Source: a virus (taxonomy: Duplodnaviria; Caudoviricetes). From it: DNA of 52,270 bases. Location of the stretch: the IMG/VR virus record IMGVR_UViG_3300032173_000009, positions 1 to 52,270 of that record. One strand, written 5' to 3'. The notes under the pieces were generated by a model, which was given only the letters and a program-made list of their open reading frames with translations, had not been told where the DNA came from and ran no database searches. Both the position numbers and the translations under genes were made by a program. Below, piece after piece: positions 1,774 through 17,712 of the stretch; within the stretch, counting starts at the first letter, position 1, and each line of letters opens with the position of its first letter.

Positions 1774-1802
1774 TTGACAAGTGATTAAACAACCCTTATG
1801 CT
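1774..1802 (+). promoter_or_regulatory. sigma70-type promoter with TGATTAAACA operator in the spacer
   Basis: TTGACA (1774-1779), 17 bp, TATGCT (1797-1802); TGATTAAACA at 1782-1791. Confidence 0.75.
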
Positions 1803-1845
1803 TGGGGTGTCGAAGAAGGAGTGGAGCCAAGAAAGGAGAACAAGG

Positions 1846-2832
1846 ATGGCCCACGAGATAGAGATCGTCGATGGAGTGGCCCGTATGTTCTACGCGGGTG
1901 AGGTCCCCTGGCATGGGCTAGGGACGAGAGTGGAGCACGCCCTCACCAGTGAGGAGGCCATCGTAGCGGCCGGCCTCGACTGGGAGGTTGAGCTCCGCCC
2001 CCTGTATAGCGGCCGGACCTTGAGGACAGCGAAGCGAGTGGACCGCTTCCTGGCCATCAGCCGGACGTCCGACAACAAGGTGCTCGGTGTTGCCACTGAG
2101 CGGTACACTCCCCTCCAGAACAAGGAGGCATTCACGTTCACTGATAGCTTGGTGAAGGACGGAGTCATGCGGTACGTGACCGCAGGCTCGCTCATGGGTG
2201 GGCGGAAGGTCTGGCTATTGGGCCAAATGGAGGGCGATTGGAGGATCAACGGCGAGCAGTACTGCCAGTACATTCTGCTTACGGCTGGGCACGACGCCAG
2301 TACGGTCGTTGACATACTGCCCACAAACGAGCGCGTAGTCTGCCACAATACGCTCCAGTGGGCTCTGGCAGCGGGACCTGCAGCAGCTAGGGAGTTCCGG
2401 ATTATCCACAATCCAGCACTCCCGACCAAGCTGGAGGCGGCGCGTAAGGCCCTGGAGATCACGACAGAGGCTTTCAGGAACTTGCAGGAGCTCCTAGAGG
2501 TAGCCCAGCAGCACACACTGGAGGCTGAGCAGGTGAAGGTGGTCACGGAGGGCCTGTTTGGAAGCCTGGACGAGGCCACTAAAGGCCAGCGTGCCAAGGC
2601 CATCGAGACCTTCCAAGCCATCTACGCAGCAGAGTCAGCACTGAACGGAGAGACGGCCTACGCGATGGTGAACGCCATCGCGGGCTATGCCGACCACTCG
2701 AAGCGCTACCATGGAGACTCAGAGCAGCGGGCCGAGAGCCGCCTGCTAAGCACCATAGTGTCAACTGGTGGTGCCTACCGCTTCAAGGCCAAGGGCATCG
2801 ACCTGGTCAAGAAGGTAGCACAGATCTCCTAG
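1846..2832 (+). CDS. DUF932/LGT_TIGR03299-family phage protein
   Basis: MAHEIE...VPWHGLG, AGLDWEV, Y-PLQN-EAF, RVVCHNT; ATG 1846 follows AAAGGAG. Confidence 0.88.
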   Translation: MAHEIEIVDGVARMFYAGEVPWHGLGTRVEHALTSEEAIVAAGLDWEVELRPLYSGRTLRTAKRVDRFLAISRTSDNKVLGVATERYTPLQNKEAFTFTDSLVKDGVMRYVTAGSLMGGRKVWLLGQMEGDWRINGEQYCQYILLTAGHDASTVVDILPTNERVVCHNTLQWALAAGPAAAREFRIIHNPALPTKLEAARKALEITTEAFRNLQELLEVAQQHTLEAEQVKVVTEGLFGSLDEATKGQRAKAIETFQAIYAAESALNGETAYAMVNAIAGYADHSKRYHGDSEQRAESRLLSTIVSTGGAYRFKAKGIDLVKKVAQIS

Positions 2833-2841
2833 GGCTTTCCA

Positions 2842-2892
2842 GCCCCCGCGCTACGCCCCCACTCTCCCCGCCAGAGTGTGGGGGCGCGGGGC
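2842..2892 (+). other. long GC-rich hairpin (terminator or processing site)
   Basis: CGCCCCC-ACTCT pairs with AGAGT-GT-GGGGGCG, extended by CCCCG/CGGGG; no U-tract. Confidence 0.5.
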
Positions 2893-2905
2893 GGAGGTTC
2901 GAGAA

Positions 2906-3160
2906 ATGAGCAAAGCACCTTGGGACCCCTACTCAGAGCAAATGGAGTCCCTTGAGCGGGCTGAGGACGCAGAGATGCTCAAGCATGCTCACGGGGTCGT
3001 CAGGGGCATCCTAGCCAGGGACGGAGACAGGCGCAAGGCAGCCAAGGCCCTACTTGAGCTAGTGCACTCTGAGCGTCTGCATGGAAACCTAGCAGTCCAG
3101 GTGGCGATGTACTACGGTCTAGCGGACGAGCTACAAGCCATCTCGTTGCGTGGAGGGTAA
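2906..3160 (+). CDS. hypothetical protein (84 aa) upstream of the first array
   Basis: ATG 2906 after GGAGG; stop codon lies inside the first degenerate array repeat. Confidence 0.7.
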   Translation: MSKAPWDPYSEQMESLERAEDAEMLKHAHGVVRGILARDGDRRKAAKALLELVHSERLHGNLAVQVAMYYGLADELQAISLRGG

Positions 3161-3452
3161 GTGGGATTCTTGTGGAGAACGGGTGGTCGATGGCGAGCGG
3201 CGATTGCATGGAGATCGGCACAATGATGACGAGCCGCTACTAACTGGAGAACGGACACGCTGTGGCGAGTGGCTAGCGTTTGAAGAATGGCAATGAGTTG
3301 GCGAGCGGCCGTAGGCTGGAGAACGGTCTTCGAGTGGCGAGCGGTCTTCTCTTGGAGAATGGGGCGAATGTGGTGAGCGAGTCAAGGGTGGAGAACGGTT
3401 TCATACTGGCGAGCGGTGAACGATTGTAGAATGGCGGCTAAGTGGCGACCTT
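3155..3452 (+). repeat. TIGR-like dual-repeat guide array 1 (8 units of 36 nt)
   Basis: TGGAGAACGG-like repeats at 3173, 3209, 3245, 3281, 3317, 3353, 3389, 3425 alternate with TGGCGAGCGG-like repeats at 3191 to 3443, each separated by 8 variable nt. Confidence 0.9.
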
Positions 3453-3488
3453 CGTTAAGAAGGCGCGAAGAAAGGAGTCCAGAAAGTT

Positions 3489-4313
3489 ATGGTCACGGAC
3501 GTAAAGGTCAGGGAAGTCTCACCTTTGAGGCACCTGCACGACACGCAGGTCTCCCTGGAGAAGTTCCGAATAGCCCTTGGCAATAGGTGCTCAGCTCTGA
3601 GTCGTGGAGTAGATGAAGCTGCTAGGCCGGTGCCAGAAGTCTACGAGCGCCTTCACCAAATGGCGACAGACATGGAGAAGGAAATCGACGTAGCTATAGC
3701 CGCTGAGCTGGACAAGTGGCCAGTCTACCGCTCCTGGCTTTCACACGTCAAAGGCATAGGGCCTTCTCTCGCAGGCCAGATGCTGGCCCTCCTCCTCCCG
3801 CCTATCCCCAGCAAAGGACCGTCCTCCTGGTATAAGGCAGCAGGACTTGCTCCCGAGTTGCGGCCCGACGGTCTGACTAGGCTGCCTCGGCCTTCTCGGG
3901 TCCGCTGTCCAGAGTGCTCTAGTACTACCTTCCAGCAGAAGCAGGGAGAGAAGACCTGTACCGAATGTGGGCGCCCCTTAGCCAAAGGCGAGGGCAAAGT
4001 CTCCTACCACCCCTGGCTCCGGCGCTGCCTCTACAATGTGGGCACGTCCTTTGTCCGCAACGGTGGCTACTACAGAGTCATCTATGAGCAGACAAAGGAG
4101 CGGCTACAGCATCTCCACGAAGGTGACAAGGACTGGCCACCAATACGAGTAGACCGGACGGCCCGTTGGAAAATGGTCAAGGTCTTCCTAGCTCACCTAT
4201 GGGAGGCTTGGAGCGAAGTCGAGGGCATTCCTGCTCGTCTGCCCTATGTCGTAGAGACGTATGGGCACCAGTACATTCCACGGCCTCTGCCCACGGGAGA
4301 CGGCAAGATATAG
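3489..4313 (+). CDS. Nop/IS110-domain RNA-binding protein, TasA-like, with C4 zinc-ribbon insertion
   Basis: N-terminal helical hairpin; LSHVKGIGPSLAG, KAAGLAP and PWLRRCLY motifs of the IS110 C-terminal/Nop fold; no N-terminal RuvC; CPEC...CTEC insert; flanked by 36-nt arrays. Confidence 0.82.
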   Translation: MVTDVKVREVSPLRHLHDTQVSLEKFRIALGNRCSALSRGVDEAARPVPEVYERLHQMATDMEKEIDVAIAAELDKWPVYRSWLSHVKGIGPSLAGQMLALLLPPIPSKGPSSWYKAAGLAPELRPDGLTRLPRPSRVRCPECSSTTFQQKQGEKTCTECGRPLAKGEGKVSYHPWLRRCLYNVGTSFVRNGGYYRVIYEQTKERLQHLHEGDKDWPPIRVDRTARWKMVKVFLAHLWEAWSEVEGIPARLPYVVETYGHQYIPRPLPTGDGKI

Positions 4314-4748
4314 CGGTCCGTCATTGGAGAACGGGAGCTAAGTGACGAGCGGTTTGCTGGTGGAGAACGGGTGGTCGATGGCGAGTGGCGTCATGGTGGA
4401 GAATGGTCTAGCCTTGGCGAGCGGCGACTTCATGGAGGACAGCGGATTGGTGGCGAGTGGATGAATGCTGGAGAACGAGGCGCCGGTGGCGAGCGGTGAG
4501 AAAATGGAGAACGGTGTCAAGCTGGCGAGCGGTCGCTGAGTGGAGAACCAGATAATATTGGCAAGCGGAAGCGCGCTGAAGAATGGAATGAATGTGGCGA
4601 GCGGTGAATAGTTGGAGAACGGGCGGGGTCTGGTGAGCGACGAAGCGGTGGAGAACGGGAGCTTCATGGCGAGCGGTGGCCGTTTGGAGAACGGTACAGA
4701 GATGGTGAGCGGAGGCTCTCTGAAGAATGGCAAACGGTTGGTGAGTTA
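4307..4748 (+). repeat. TIGR-like dual-repeat guide array 2 (12 units of 36 nt)
   Basis: TGGAGAACGG-like repeats every 36 nt from 4325 to 4721, alternating with TGGCGAGCGG-like repeats from 4343 to 4739; 8-nt variable spacers. Confidence 0.9.
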
Positions 4749-4749
4749 G

Positions 4750-7188
4750 ATGATCTGCTCCCGCTGTCTCCTAGGCAAAACGACCACTCCTGTCCCTGGT
4801 GAGGGACCTGTGCCCTGCGACCTGCTGCTTGTGGGTGAGGCACCAGGTGCGGTGGAGGAAAGAGAGCTGAGGCCGTTCGTAGGGGACGCAGGGCGTGTTC
4901 TCAACGGCCTGCTCAAGGACGTGGGCCTCAGTCGGGAGCAGGTCCGCATTACCAATATCGTCCACTGCCGACCACCTGGGAACAGGAAGCCGGAGGACGA
5001 GGAGCTGCTAGCCTGCGCTGTCCACATGGCAGCCGAGCTAGGTCAGGTCAAGCCCAAGCTCGTCGTGGCACTAGGGGGCACGGCAGCTAAGGCTCTGACG
5101 GGGAAGGAGAAGATCGGGGCGGGTCGAGGGCGCGTCCTTGCGCTCAAACCTGAGTACCGTAGCTCTATCCCAGTAGTCGTCACCTACCACCCAGCCTACT
5201 ACCTACACCGGAACGGTGACAAGAGCATCCTGGACGGCATAGCTACGGACTTCAGGTTTGCGCTGAAGGTAGCCGATGCTCTTGTCACCGTTCCGGTGAA
5301 GGGCGCTGCAGCCAAGCAAGACATCCTAGTGACTGAGAATGAGGTAGAGATCGCCTCCGCTCTCCGTCAGCTTGCGTCCTGCGACCTGCTGGCCTGCGAC
5401 TGCGAGTGGGAAGTCCTGCCCAACGGCCGCTTCCAGCCCTGGAGTAGGTGTGAGGGCAAGGCGCCCAGGTTAGTCAGCATCGCCTTGGCTGGTAGGCTAG
5501 CAGACGGTCCACTAGCTGTAGCCGTCAAAGCCGATAGCAAGGCATTCCCGGTCGTCGTCAAGATACTGAGCAAAGTACCGACGATCTACCACAATGCGCC
5601 GGCGGACTTGGCCTGGCTCCTGTCCTTGGGTGCCAAGCCTATACTAGCTGGCGACACCTTGCTCCTAGCCTCGCTGCTAAACTTGCAGCACTCACTTGGC
5701 CTTAAGGTCCTAGCCGCCGTGCTCACGGAAGTACCAGCAGGCTGGGACACTGAGGTGCAGGAGGGCATCCTGGGCACGCTCCCCGCCACCAAAGCTGCTT
5801 GGGATGCCCTCCTCAAGTATAACGGGCAGGATGCCCTCGCCACCCTCTTACTCAACGAGCGCCTACTGCAGATGGTGAGGGAGCAGCAGCGTGAGGCGGT
5901 TCTTCCCCTCTACCGGAAGCTCCTGGGAGCGAGCTATGCCTTGGTCAAAGCCGCCCTAAGAGGTGCGCCCCTTGATGGGAAGATGCTCTCTGAGCTGAAA
6001 GAGCAAGCAGACTACCGGATCGTCTCACTACGAAAAGCAGTTGCAGCGGAGTTTGGCATGCCTGGGTTCGTCAAGAAGGAGGCACACTCCTCCGACCTCG
6101 TGGCTGCTGAGCTTGAGCATCGTGGAGTGAAGCTGCCCAAGACGCCAAAGCTGCAGCGCGCCTCGCTCAACGCCGCCGCTCTCCTGCCTTATGCTAGCCG
6201 GCCCGACGTAAAGCCACTCATAGCGCTAGCCAAGGTAGTGAAGCTGGAGAACACCTACCTTGGCCCCTGGACGGAGCTGCTCAAGGAGCAGGGAGAGGCA
6301 CGGCTCCATACTGGGTATAAGTTGTGGGTTGCTAGGACGGGGCGCTCTTCGACGGAGGGCGAGGCAGGAGGCACTATCCAGCAGTTCCCACGTGACTCCC
6401 AAATGCGCCGCCTCGTTCGCGCACCCGACGGCTACGTTATAGTCTCTGCTGACCAGTCGCAGGTTGAGCTACGAATCGCTGCCTGGCTAGCTGACGAGAC
6501 GACGATGAAGCGCTTCTTCCGGGAAGGCATCGACATTCACACTGCTACTGCCGCCTGGCTGAAGGCCAGCTCTAGAGGCATCCCCCTAATCTCCTACCTG
6601 GCTCACCAGCGGGAGTATATGGAGGAGGTGACGAAAGAGGAGAGGCAGGGAGCTAAGCCTATCAACTTCGGCCTACTCTACGGTGGGCAAGAGGAGGTGC
6701 TAGTTGGTGTGGCTCTGAGGGACTATGGTATTACTCTGACCAAAGAGCAGGCTACGGTGGCAAAGAGCGGCTTCTTCGAGCTCTACCCGAAGCTAGTGGA
6801 CTGGCACAAGTCGGCCTGGCACTGGGTCAACAAGGGAGCTGTGCCTACCCCACTGGGGCGCTGGCGCAACCTGCCCTCAGAGGACGGAGAGGACGGGCTG
6901 GCTAAGCAGAGGAAGGCGATCAACACTCCAGTCCAGGCTACGGCCTCAGACCTCTGCCTCATTTCTCTGGCTGAGATCGACAGGCTGCTGGACGGGCTGG
7001 ACTCGTATATTATAGGGTTCGTCCACGACTCAGTACTGTTGGAAGCCAGCGAGAGGCACTTGGCCCAGGTCGTCGAAGTAGTCAGGCGCTGCATGGAGAA
7101 CCCAGACCTCAGCGAGTTTGGGCTCACCCTTCCAGTGCCCTTGGTAGCGGACATAAAGGTCGGGAAAACATGGGGAGATTGTGCCTGA
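4750..7188 (+). CDS. family A DNA polymerase with N-terminal family-4 uracil-DNA-glycosylase-like domain and 3'-5' exonuclease
   Basis: CxxC, GEAPG, PFVGDAG, CRPPGNRKP, TYHP (UDG); DCE, HNAPAD, YNGQDA (exo); DQSQVELR, RQGAKPINFGLLYG, VHDS (pol motifs A, B, C). Confidence 0.93.
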   Translation: MICSRCLLGKTTTPVPGEGPVPCDLLLVGEAPGAVEERELRPFVGDAGRVLNGLLKDVGLSREQVRITNIVHCRPPGNRKPEDEELLACAVHMAAELGQVKPKLVVALGGTAAKALTGKEKIGAGRGRVLALKPEYRSSIPVVVTYHPAYYLHRNGDKSILDGIATDFRFALKVADALVTVPVKGAAAKQDILVTENEVEIASALRQLASCDLLACDCEWEVLPNGRFQPWSRCEGKAPRLVSIALAGRLADGPLAVAVKADSKAFPVVVKILSKVPTIYHNAPADLAWLLSLGAKPILAGDTLLLASLLNLQHSLGLKVLAAVLTEVPAGWDTEVQEGILGTLPATKAAWDALLKYNGQDALATLLLNERLLQMVREQQREAVLPLYRKLLGASYALVKAALRGAPLDGKMLSELKEQADYRIVSLRKAVAAEFGMPGFVKKEAHSSDLVAAELEHRGVKLPKTPKLQRASLNAAALLPYASRPDVKPLIALAKVVKLENTYLGPWTELLKEQGEARLHTGYKLWVARTGRSSTEGEAGGTIQQFPRDSQMRRLVRAPDGYVIVSADQSQVELRIAAWLADETTMKRFFREGIDIHTATAAWLKASSRGIPLISYLAHQREYMEEVTKEERQGAKPINFGLLYGGQEEVLVGVALRDYGITLTKEQATVAKSGFFELYPKLVDWHKSAWHWVNKGAVPTPLGRWRNLPSEDGEDGLAKQRKAINTPVQATASDLCLISLAEIDRLLDGLDSYIIGFVHDSVLLEASERHLAQVVEVVRRCMENPDLSEFGLTLPVPLVADIKVGKTWGDCA

Positions 7189-17271: not shown

Positions 17272-17712
17272 ATGGCGAAAGCACCAGTGAGGGACTTTGA
17301 GGCGGAGAGGATTTGCTCCCAGTGTCTAGGACCACTGGAGGCGGCCGACGGGCACTACCACGAGAAAATGGATGCAAAGTGGTCGGACGTCGTCTGCTGC
17401 ACGTGTGCAGGCTGTGGCGATACTCCCGTAGCAAAAGAGCCCAAGGCCACCAAGGAGCCAGCTAGGGTTGAGGAGGAGGCCGTCAAGGAGAGCAAGCCCG
17501 CCATTCAGCAGTACACTGGTGGAGTGGACAATGGGGAAGCTCTCGAAGCTATCGTGGCGGCAGCGAAGACCCTGAGGAAGGAGAAGTTCTCGGCAGCGGA
17601 TGTCACAGGGCAGCTTCATGGAAGGCTAGAGTGGCAGGACGTCCTTCGCACTATGAAGGAGTCCAGCAGGTTCGAGAGGATCTCCTCCCGGTCTTGGAGG
17701 TTGGTTGATTGA
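17272..17712 (+). CDS. hypothetical protein, Cys-rich N-terminus and possible winged-helix C-terminus
   Basis: AAGGAGG SD; CxxC, H, CCxCxxC. Confidence 0.7.
   Translation: MAKAPVRDFEAERICSQCLGPLEAADGHYHEKMDAKWSDVVCCTCAGCGDTPVAKEPKATKEPARVEEEAVKESKPAIQQYTGGVDNGEALEAIVAAAKTLRKEKFSAADVTGQLHGRLEWQDVLRTMKESSRFERISSRSWRLVD

Follow-up and report, generated by a model that had tools for sequence, protein, structure and literature searches.

What is encoded where two arrays of short, alternating repeats enclose a single gene in the genome of an uncultured tailed phage? The question is raised by positions 3155–4748 of IMG/VR virus record IMGVR_UViG_3300032173_000009 (Duplodnaviria; Caudoviricetes), a linear record of 52,270 bp and about 80% complete, the whole of which was analyzed and is referred to here as the window. 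An earlier reading of the DNA made without database searches (the sequence-only reading) had proposed a nuclease-less, TasA-like, RNA-guided system with a split array. The TIGR-Tas family, first reported in 2025 (Faure et al., PMC12045711) and extended in 2026 (Xu et al., 10.64898/2026.09.09.750476), has about 20,000 catalogued loci; within it, TasA binds 36-nt RNAs. The locus studied here has the array anatomy, and its protein the family membership, fold and conserved catalytic dyad, of this family: it belongs to the known TIGR-TasA kind, with a zinc ribbon, the fusion of its arrays to neighboring stops and starts, and a missing terminator as local variants. Very probably, it is an intact dual-repeat TIGR-TasA system residing in the replication module of its phage and working as proposed below.

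The repeats form two plus-strand arrays with an exact 36-nt period, comprising 8 units upstream and 12 units downstream of a gene that we name tasA. Each unit consists of an edge repeat (TGGCGAGCGG, consensus), an 8-nt spacer, a loop repeat (TGGAGAACGG, consensus) and a second 8-nt spacer, and the repeats follow each other in 18-nt steps with no insertion or deletion over all 20 units. A search for the pattern edge–N8–loop, allowing up to three mismatches, returned 18 matches in the window, all on the plus strand and all inside the two arrays, against 0.00 matches in 100 dinucleotide shuffles; the unit counts and strict period given by the sequence-only reading thus hold. That reading had also left a choice between spacers of 8 nt and, counting the terminal G, 9 nt. 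Since position 10 of the repeat is nearly always G (16 of 18 edges and 18 of 20 loops), the variable segment is 8 nt. Invariant positions are 1, 2, 6 and 7 in the edge and 1, 2, 4 and 5 in the loop, and exact consensus copies account for 9 of the 18 full edges and 10 of the 20 loops. Tandem Repeats Finder recovered only fragments of the arrays, which is no surprise with 44% of each unit variable, and Rfam gave no match at E up to 1 across positions 2800–5000. A CRISPR array, with a single repeat of 25–36 nt and spacers of similar size, is ruled out on anatomy by the two alternating 10-nt repeats and 8-nt spacers.

Within the repeats, edge position 4 (C or T) is pairable with position 7 (G) in every edge, while the loop carries an A-rich AGAA between G3 and C8. 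This pattern mirrors the description of TasR repeats, in which the loop is A-rich and tetraloop-like and the edge has one extra pair. Apparent covariation of G3 with C8, seen in all three loops with A at position 3 (each has T at position 8), was not used because relatives with the consensus TGAAGAACGG break the pair.

To orient the arrays, a phage array for which the guide RNAs (tigRNAs) have been sequenced, that of Salicola phage CGphi29, provides a reference. It lies downstream of tasH on the tasH strand, with edge AAGCGAGCCA, loop AAGACAACCA and 8-nt spacers; its final repeat is of edge type, and a terminator comes next. Its repeats have the cores GCGAGC and GAnAAC in common with those of the window; the match assigns the plus strand as the RNA strand, TGGCGAGCGG as the edge and TGGAGAACGG as the loop. 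This comparison and the published anatomy bear out the earlier assignment of the repeats as alternating edges and loops of TIGR type. The family description requires the box C/box D ends to covary between edge and loop. In the window both repeats have the form TG......GG, and across relatives the outer bases (the first two and the last two or three) covary between edge and loop as TG..GG, AA..CA, GA..CG, TT..CA and GC..CA.

The product of tasA is a Tas protein by three comparisons, of curated profiles, of sequences in the Protein Data Bank (PDB) and of folds. It matches NF052498.1, the curated NCBIfam equivalog for the TIGR-Tas system RNA-guided endonuclease, with E 1.5e-35 and 123.2 bits against a cut-off of 100, residues 13–241 covering profile positions 1–214 of 215. 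In the PDB sequence search TaTasR (9mty) ranked best at E 9.1e-14, with SpTasH at E 4e-5. An AlphaFold2 model built from 33 homologues (pLDDT 89.1, pTM 0.83) was compared with the PDB by Foldseek, and each of the top 10 matches was a chain of TasH or TasR (E 2e-9 to 1e-7, TM 0.58–0.67), led by TasH 9w04 (E 2.2e-9) and TasR 9mty (E 3e-9). A second tier comprised IS621 and ISCro4 at E of about 1e-3, followed by Nop5 (1nt2_B) at E 0.8 over 88 aligned columns. Identity as a Nop5/Nop56 protein of box C/D snoRNPs was rejected, the fold match to 1nt2_B not being close and a fibrillarin-binding domain being absent. The comparison of profiles and structures proposed with the sequence-only reading therefore yields the Nop fold that it had predicted, with TasH and TasR as the best matches. 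Its claim that the 274-aa product lacks RuvC likewise stands: neither an HNH nor a RuvC domain was detected by Pfam, NCBIfam or the model, in which only 11 residues precede the coiled-coil hairpin, and the lack of either domain makes the protein of TasA type. Pfam returned only sub-threshold zinc-ribbon matches at residues 137–168.

For precursor processing, the C-terminal loop of the protein is of particular interest. In SpTasH, Y289 and H296 are the catalytic residues for metal-independent cleavage of the tigRNA precursor (PMC13421893, NAR 2026), and this Tyr/His dyad marks dual-repeat systems and is missing from stem-loop systems, according to a 2026 preprint (Xu et al., 10.64898/2026.09.09.750476). 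BLASTP alignment with annotated SpTasH places Y253 on Y289, H260 on H296, R250 on R286 and E256 on E292. Neither Y253 nor H260 varies in any of the 33 aligned homologues (33 of 33), and the window protein keeps every one of the 31 columns that are invariant in the family.

A second segment of interest is a CxxC...CxxC insertion, a zinc ribbon by its cysteine pattern, which is found at the equivalent site in 9 of the 33 aligned homologues; other homologues carry different insertions nearby. In a phmmer alignment with TaTasR, residues 103–174 of the query face TasR residues 194–230, and the wedge loop of TasR is given as G210–K230 in the methods of the preprint (Xu et al., 10.64898/2026.09.09.750476). 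From this placement, an inference and not a structural alignment, the ribbon probably expands the wedge. The word zinc is absent from the main texts of Faure et al. (PMC12045711) and of the Xu et al. preprint, and the papers listed in a literature search combining tigRNA with zinc, four of the five that hold both terms, were by title and abstract reviews or methods on other subjects. As a separate observation, the TasA clade shows several lineage-specific insertions around alignment columns 190–300 and 360–440, among them, besides the zinc ribbon, a Cys/His-containing insertion that in some sequences precedes the RLPR motif and, in 7 of 33 sequences, a helical insertion spanning some 45–65 columns after the conserved H.

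TasA is further predicted to form a homodimer through its N-terminal coiled coil. The modeled pair scored an ipSAE of 0.49 against 0.00 for the best control, with the interface at residues 10–69, at least 71% of contacts agreeing between runs and a partner pLDDT of at least 77; among proteins of known structure, 20 of 30 that were solved as pairs attain the 0.49 mark, as does 1 of 23 solved as single chains. Because similar complexes have already been solved, this score indicates likeness to them rather than binding.

By analogy with homologues, from which processing, 36-nt products, DNA binding and repression are carried over, we propose the following course of events. The plus strand would be transcribed through orf94, array 1, tasA, array 2 and polA. 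TasA would dimerize via its coiled coil, and the Nop domain of each protomer would bind one repeat, edge or loop, through their shared TG...CGG box motifs. The loop bearing Tyr253 and His260 could then cut the precursor inside each edge repeat to release up to twenty 36-nt tigRNAs, each composed of a 5' half-edge, spacer A, loop, spacer B and a 3' half-edge. Such a tigRNA would guide the dimer to a site of about 16 bp, where spacer A would pair with one strand and spacer B, over the neighboring stretch, with the opposite strand. As the protein has no nuclease domain, the complex is proposed to bind and bend DNA without cutting it, and may thereby block transcription or replication of foreign or host DNA.

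The closest published counterparts share some features with the locus and differ in others. Dual-repeat TIGR-TasA loci, such as that encoding FpTasA of Flavonifractor plautii (PMC12045711), have the same solo Nop protein with no nuclease, and the same alternating edge and loop repeats in 36-nt units, with truncated edges at the ends, beside the gene. By definition such systems have repeats of 8–12 nt and spacers of about 9 nt, compared with 10 and 8 nt in the window; the window differs further in its TG...CGG boxes, its zinc ribbon and its lack of a terminator, points drawn from the published description, the FpTasA sequence lying outside the comparison. SpTasH of Salicola phage CGphi29 (PDB 9w04, 21kl) is the best fold match and is likewise phage-borne, with its dyad kept in the window protein and an array of 10-nt repeats, with the same cores, and 8-nt spacers as here. 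However, it carries an N-terminal HNH nuclease, which window TasA does not, and cuts DNA; the two proteins align by BLASTP over 109 columns at 33% identity, and its array, lying downstream only and ending in a terminator, is unlike those of the window. TaTasR (9mty), the best PDB sequence match, shares the Nop fold and coiled-coil dimer, but its RuvC domain is active, its spacers are 9 nt long and its boxes read UG...CCA.

Two further groups bear on the activity expected of window TasA. MbTasA exerts reversible, guide-dependent transcriptional repression without cleavage (Xu et al., 10.64898/2026.09.09.750476), and, like it, the dead TasRs are nuclease-less repressors that bind DNA under guidance; a comparable activity is inferred for window TasA, in keeping with the programmable DNA binding or repression that the sequence-only reading had suggested as possible. 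The dead TasRs CsTasR and PateTasR use stem-loop tigRNAs and have no Y/H loop, whereas the window locus is dual-repeat and has the dyad. IS110/IS621 bridge-RNA recombinases and archaeal Nop5 share the Nop-type RNA-binding domain, but the window protein has neither their DEDD/RuvC nor their fibrillarin-binding domain, and it is accompanied by tandem arrays rather than a single bridge RNA or snoRNA.

Coordinates of the locus are collected in Table 1. All gene-like open reading frames (ORFs) of at least 150 aa in the window lie on the plus strand. The locus is set in the order SNF2 helicase, DUF932 protein, 94-aa ORF, TIGR-tasA and a UDG-exonuclease-PolA fusion, the downstream array ending 2 nt before the polA ATG; further neighbors are a PD-(D/E)XK-type exonuclease, a Sak4-like annealing protein, SSB and a primase, with terminase and portal further on. 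The best cultured-phage matches of the PolA fusion are actinophage PolI proteins, at about 30–34% identity. None of the six neighbor proteins, the DUF932 protein and the 94-aa ORF included, was found beside close relatives of tasA in 3-kb flanks, and weak Sak4 matches beside four distant loci were the only flank matches. No sigma-70-like promoter was found on the plus strand between 2700 and 5000. In a second sediment study, short contigs match positions 4209–4359, 4358–4508 and 5149–5366 with full identity, so the 3' end of tasA and about the first five downstream units are not an assembly artifact of a single sample. The run that may be the source of the record gave no contig spanning the arrays, a gap that carries no weight as evidence.

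Table 1. Features of the TIGR-TasA locus and its immediate neighbors (positions in the window).
Feature	Position	Strand	Remarks
DUF932 / phrog_1221 protein	1798–2832	+	immediately precedes the 94-aa ORF, upstream of the first array
94-aa ORF (orf94)	2876–3160	+	no family match; adjoins the first array
Upstream TIGR array	3155–3452	+	8 units: 7 full edges, 8 loops, a truncated edge at each end
Upstream 5'-truncated edge	3155	+	GGGTAAGTGG; overlaps the TAA stop of ORF 2876–3160
Upstream full edges	3191...3407	+	
Upstream loops	3173...3425	+	
Upstream 3'-truncated edge	3443	+	
Shine-Dalgarno-like GAAAGGAGT	3469–3477	+	about 12 nt before the tasA ATG; read from sequence
tasA	3489–4313	+	274-aa solo-Nop protein; NCBIfam, Foldseek, 87 homologues
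N-terminal coiled-coil hairpin	3516–3695	+	residues ~10–69; helices 12–39 and 49–74; predicted homodimer interface
Zinc-ribbon insertion	3897–3986	+	residues ~137–166; C140, C143, C157, C160; probable wedge segment
C-terminal processing loop	4245–4268	+	Y253 (TAT 4245–4247), H260 (CAC 4266–4268); aligned to SpTasH Y289/H296
Downstream TIGR array	4307–4748	+	12 units: 11 full edges, 12 loops, a truncated edge at each end
Downstream 5'-truncated edge	4307	+	AGCGG half overlaps the tasA TAG stop
Downstream full edges	4343...4703	+	
Downstream loops	4325...4721	+	
Downstream 3'-truncated edge	4739	+	TGGTGAG
UDG-exonuclease-PolA fusion	4750–7188	+	PF03167 E 5.4e-29, residues 16–158, then 3'–5' exonuclease and family-A polymerase domains

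Several details of the arrays deserve separate mention. The preceding stop codons contribute to the truncated edges, as TAA-GTGG (3158–3160) and TAG-CGG (4311–4313), and each array thus begins on the stop of the preceding gene; in the relatives examined for their array start, the tas stop is likewise where the array begins, and the sequence there reads ATAGCGG or TTAGCGG. By eye, the first spacer after the stop is one of eight bases away from that of a single relative (L002, which lies outside the guide-sharing comparison below), a likeness that did not recur in the first spacers of the other relatives examined for their array start. All edges of both arrays share the same position modulo 36, the arrays being in phase (3173 to 4325 spans 1152 nt, or 32 x 36). 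The two arrays are out of phase in L004 and L037, relatives with arrays on both sides, and so the shared phase is treated here as probably a coincidence. Likeness among spacers within the window is at chance level, save for one identical pair (P about 0.01–0.05): GTGGTCGA is spacer B of both unit 1 (3183–3190, upstream) and unit 10 (4371–4378, downstream), with identical flanking repeats. Duplication of a unit, or an exchange between the arrays, may have left this pair.

Searches for homologues of TasA returned 87 proteins at E up to 1e-3, none with a functional name and the closest 71% identical. Relatives from cultured phages, all at 33% identity or less, are found in Microcystis phage Mvi-JY20, Ralstonia phage phiRSL1, Acidianus tailed spindle virus, Sulfolobales virus YNP1 and Salicola phage CGphi29, and genome collections yielded five loci, all in metagenome-assembled genomes. 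In a census of 90 distinct loci (the window counted), scored for period 36 only although a few loci have periods of 34–35, a 36-nt array lies beside the tas homologue in 50: upstream only in 14, downstream only in 28 and on both sides in 8. Where at least 1 kb was available on both sides (43 loci), the corresponding numbers are 9, 14 and 5. The split array is therefore a minority arrangement, and one already described for the family (Faure et al., PMC12045711; Xu et al., 10.64898/2026.09.09.750476); the sequence-only reading was right about the nuclease-less, TasA-like identity of the system, whereas the split array that it noted is not a special feature. None of the guides is shared with 24 related loci (254 units). 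The closest pair has 4 of 16 mismatches, a level at which, by our own arithmetic, about 0.2 pairs are expected by chance. Near-matches of single spacers between the window and the 24 relatives numbered 4, 2, 1 and 1, where chance would give about 1.9 for each type.

Against an intact, working system stand several observations. Box C is CGG here, compared with CCA in the solved TasR and TasH complexes, and recognition of the repeats is therefore read from the covariation of edge and loop alone. Published arrays typically, though not obligatorily, end with a Rho-independent terminator (Faure et al., PMC12045711), and no terminator-like site was found between 2700 and 5000, hence none after either array. 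Two of the tigRNAs would have A–C at the edge pair of positions 3 and 8. Several repeats, at 3227, 4433 and 4541, are degenerate, so some of the 20 units may not function. In both arrays the edge of the first unit is truncated, and the minimal arrays of published work required full edges. A search for expression data listed no RNA run holding the locus. Finally, searches of the window, of own contigs and of 14 contigs turned up no target for the 20 guides.

These searches followed the published geometry, in which the two spacers match opposite strands over adjoining stretches, A on the one and B on the other, with gaps of 1–2 bp tolerated. By our own derivation, the stated 8-nt 3' overhangs fit the composite of spacer A with the reverse complement of spacer B; both this and the converse composite (reverse complement of A with B) were tested, with gaps of 0–2, on both strands and against mispaired-guide controls. 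One explanation examined in this way is that the system is a self-regulator, with guides aimed at the promoters or origins of the phage itself to time expression or replication. The position of the locus in a replication module, between the SNF2 helicase and PolA, is in keeping with this, as are the capacity of TasA for transcriptional repression and the listing of lifecycle regulation among the options in the literature. However, the 20 window guides gave 0 exact, 1 one-mismatch and 6 two-mismatch matches in the window (a record about 80% complete), against control means of 0, 0.3 and 4.3, and the sole one-mismatch match, at 17614, lies inside an ORF. Nor was there an excess over controls when 118 guides were compared with their own contigs, 10 phage contigs in all, with 0 exact, 3 one-mismatch and 32 two-mismatch matches against controls of 2.2 and 31.1 for the latter two. 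We consider self-regulation quite unlikely.

Searches beyond own contigs were similarly negative. The 223 guides of relatives, taken without the near-duplicate arrays L032, L036 and L048, gave 0 exact and 1 one-mismatch match in the window (control means 0.1 and 2.3), and 243 guides gave 0 exact matches in 14 contigs totaling 677 kb (control mean 0.46). In the own-contig search the guide extractor kept 18 of the 20 window units, and 4 of the 14 contigs yielded no units (G002, G009, G011 and G013), with G014 and G015 not among the 14. Natural targets are described as mostly unknown in the literature. The lack of self-targeting among the 118 guides on 10 phage contigs argues weakly against self-regulation and for an aim outside the own genome, and the targets most likely belong not to this phage but to its host or to mobile elements that compete with it.

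A second explanation is that the locus is a decaying or inactive relic, its arrays drifting and its protein dead, as might be read from the degenerate repeats, the absence of targets and the lack of a promoter or terminator of its own. The ORF is nevertheless intact and keeps 31 of 31 invariant family columns, the Y/H dyad included; the 36-nt register is held strictly, with no indel, through 20 units, and the same sequence recurs in a second study. On this evidence we regard a relic as very improbable.

Origin as a fragment of an IS110-type transposase with a bridge-RNA-like element is suggested by PHROGs, which places tasA in phrog_4285, labeled transposase (integration and excision), at E 3.4e-19, as well as by the second-tier fold matches to IS621 and ISCro4 and a weak NCBIfam match at E 0.023. 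The last of these, to NF033542.1, reaches 13.9 bits where the cut-off is 140 and covers only residues 25–102, whereas the TIGR-Tas model exceeds its cut-off; moreover, the protein opens with a coiled coil and has no DEDD/RuvC domain, and 20 tandem units stand where one bridge RNA would be expected. Profile scores, model and fold matches effectively refute this origin, and the transposase label of phrog_4285 is misleading for Tas proteins. Also refuted is the idea of a 12-residue tandem-repeat protein encoded by the 36-nt repeats, such as the product of the minus-strand 131-aa ORF at 4338–4733: long minus-strand frames do cross both arrays, but shuffling within spacers yields equally long ones (downstream, 135 codons against a null mean of 134.5, P = 0.71; upstream, 82 against 92.9, P = 0.89), which makes them a by-product of the repeats, and the plus strand carries every real gene of the window.

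Returning to the dual-repeat TIGR-TasA system, its local variants allow a more specific reading, which we put forward as a slim possibility. The locus could represent a TasA subclade with a zinc-ribbon-expanded wedge, in which Y/H cleavage by TasA at the edges would also divide the mRNA of the replication module into pieces and so couple the maturation of guides to the expression of tasA and UDG-PolA, while the ribbon might alter strand separation at the target. The basis for this reading is that the arrays have no terminator and start on stop codons, with the second ending just before polA. As a 274-aa, phage-borne TasA accompanied by 20 native guides, the system offers a test case for the targets of TIGR-Tas systems, for the expression of arrays embedded in an operon and for insertions in the wedge.

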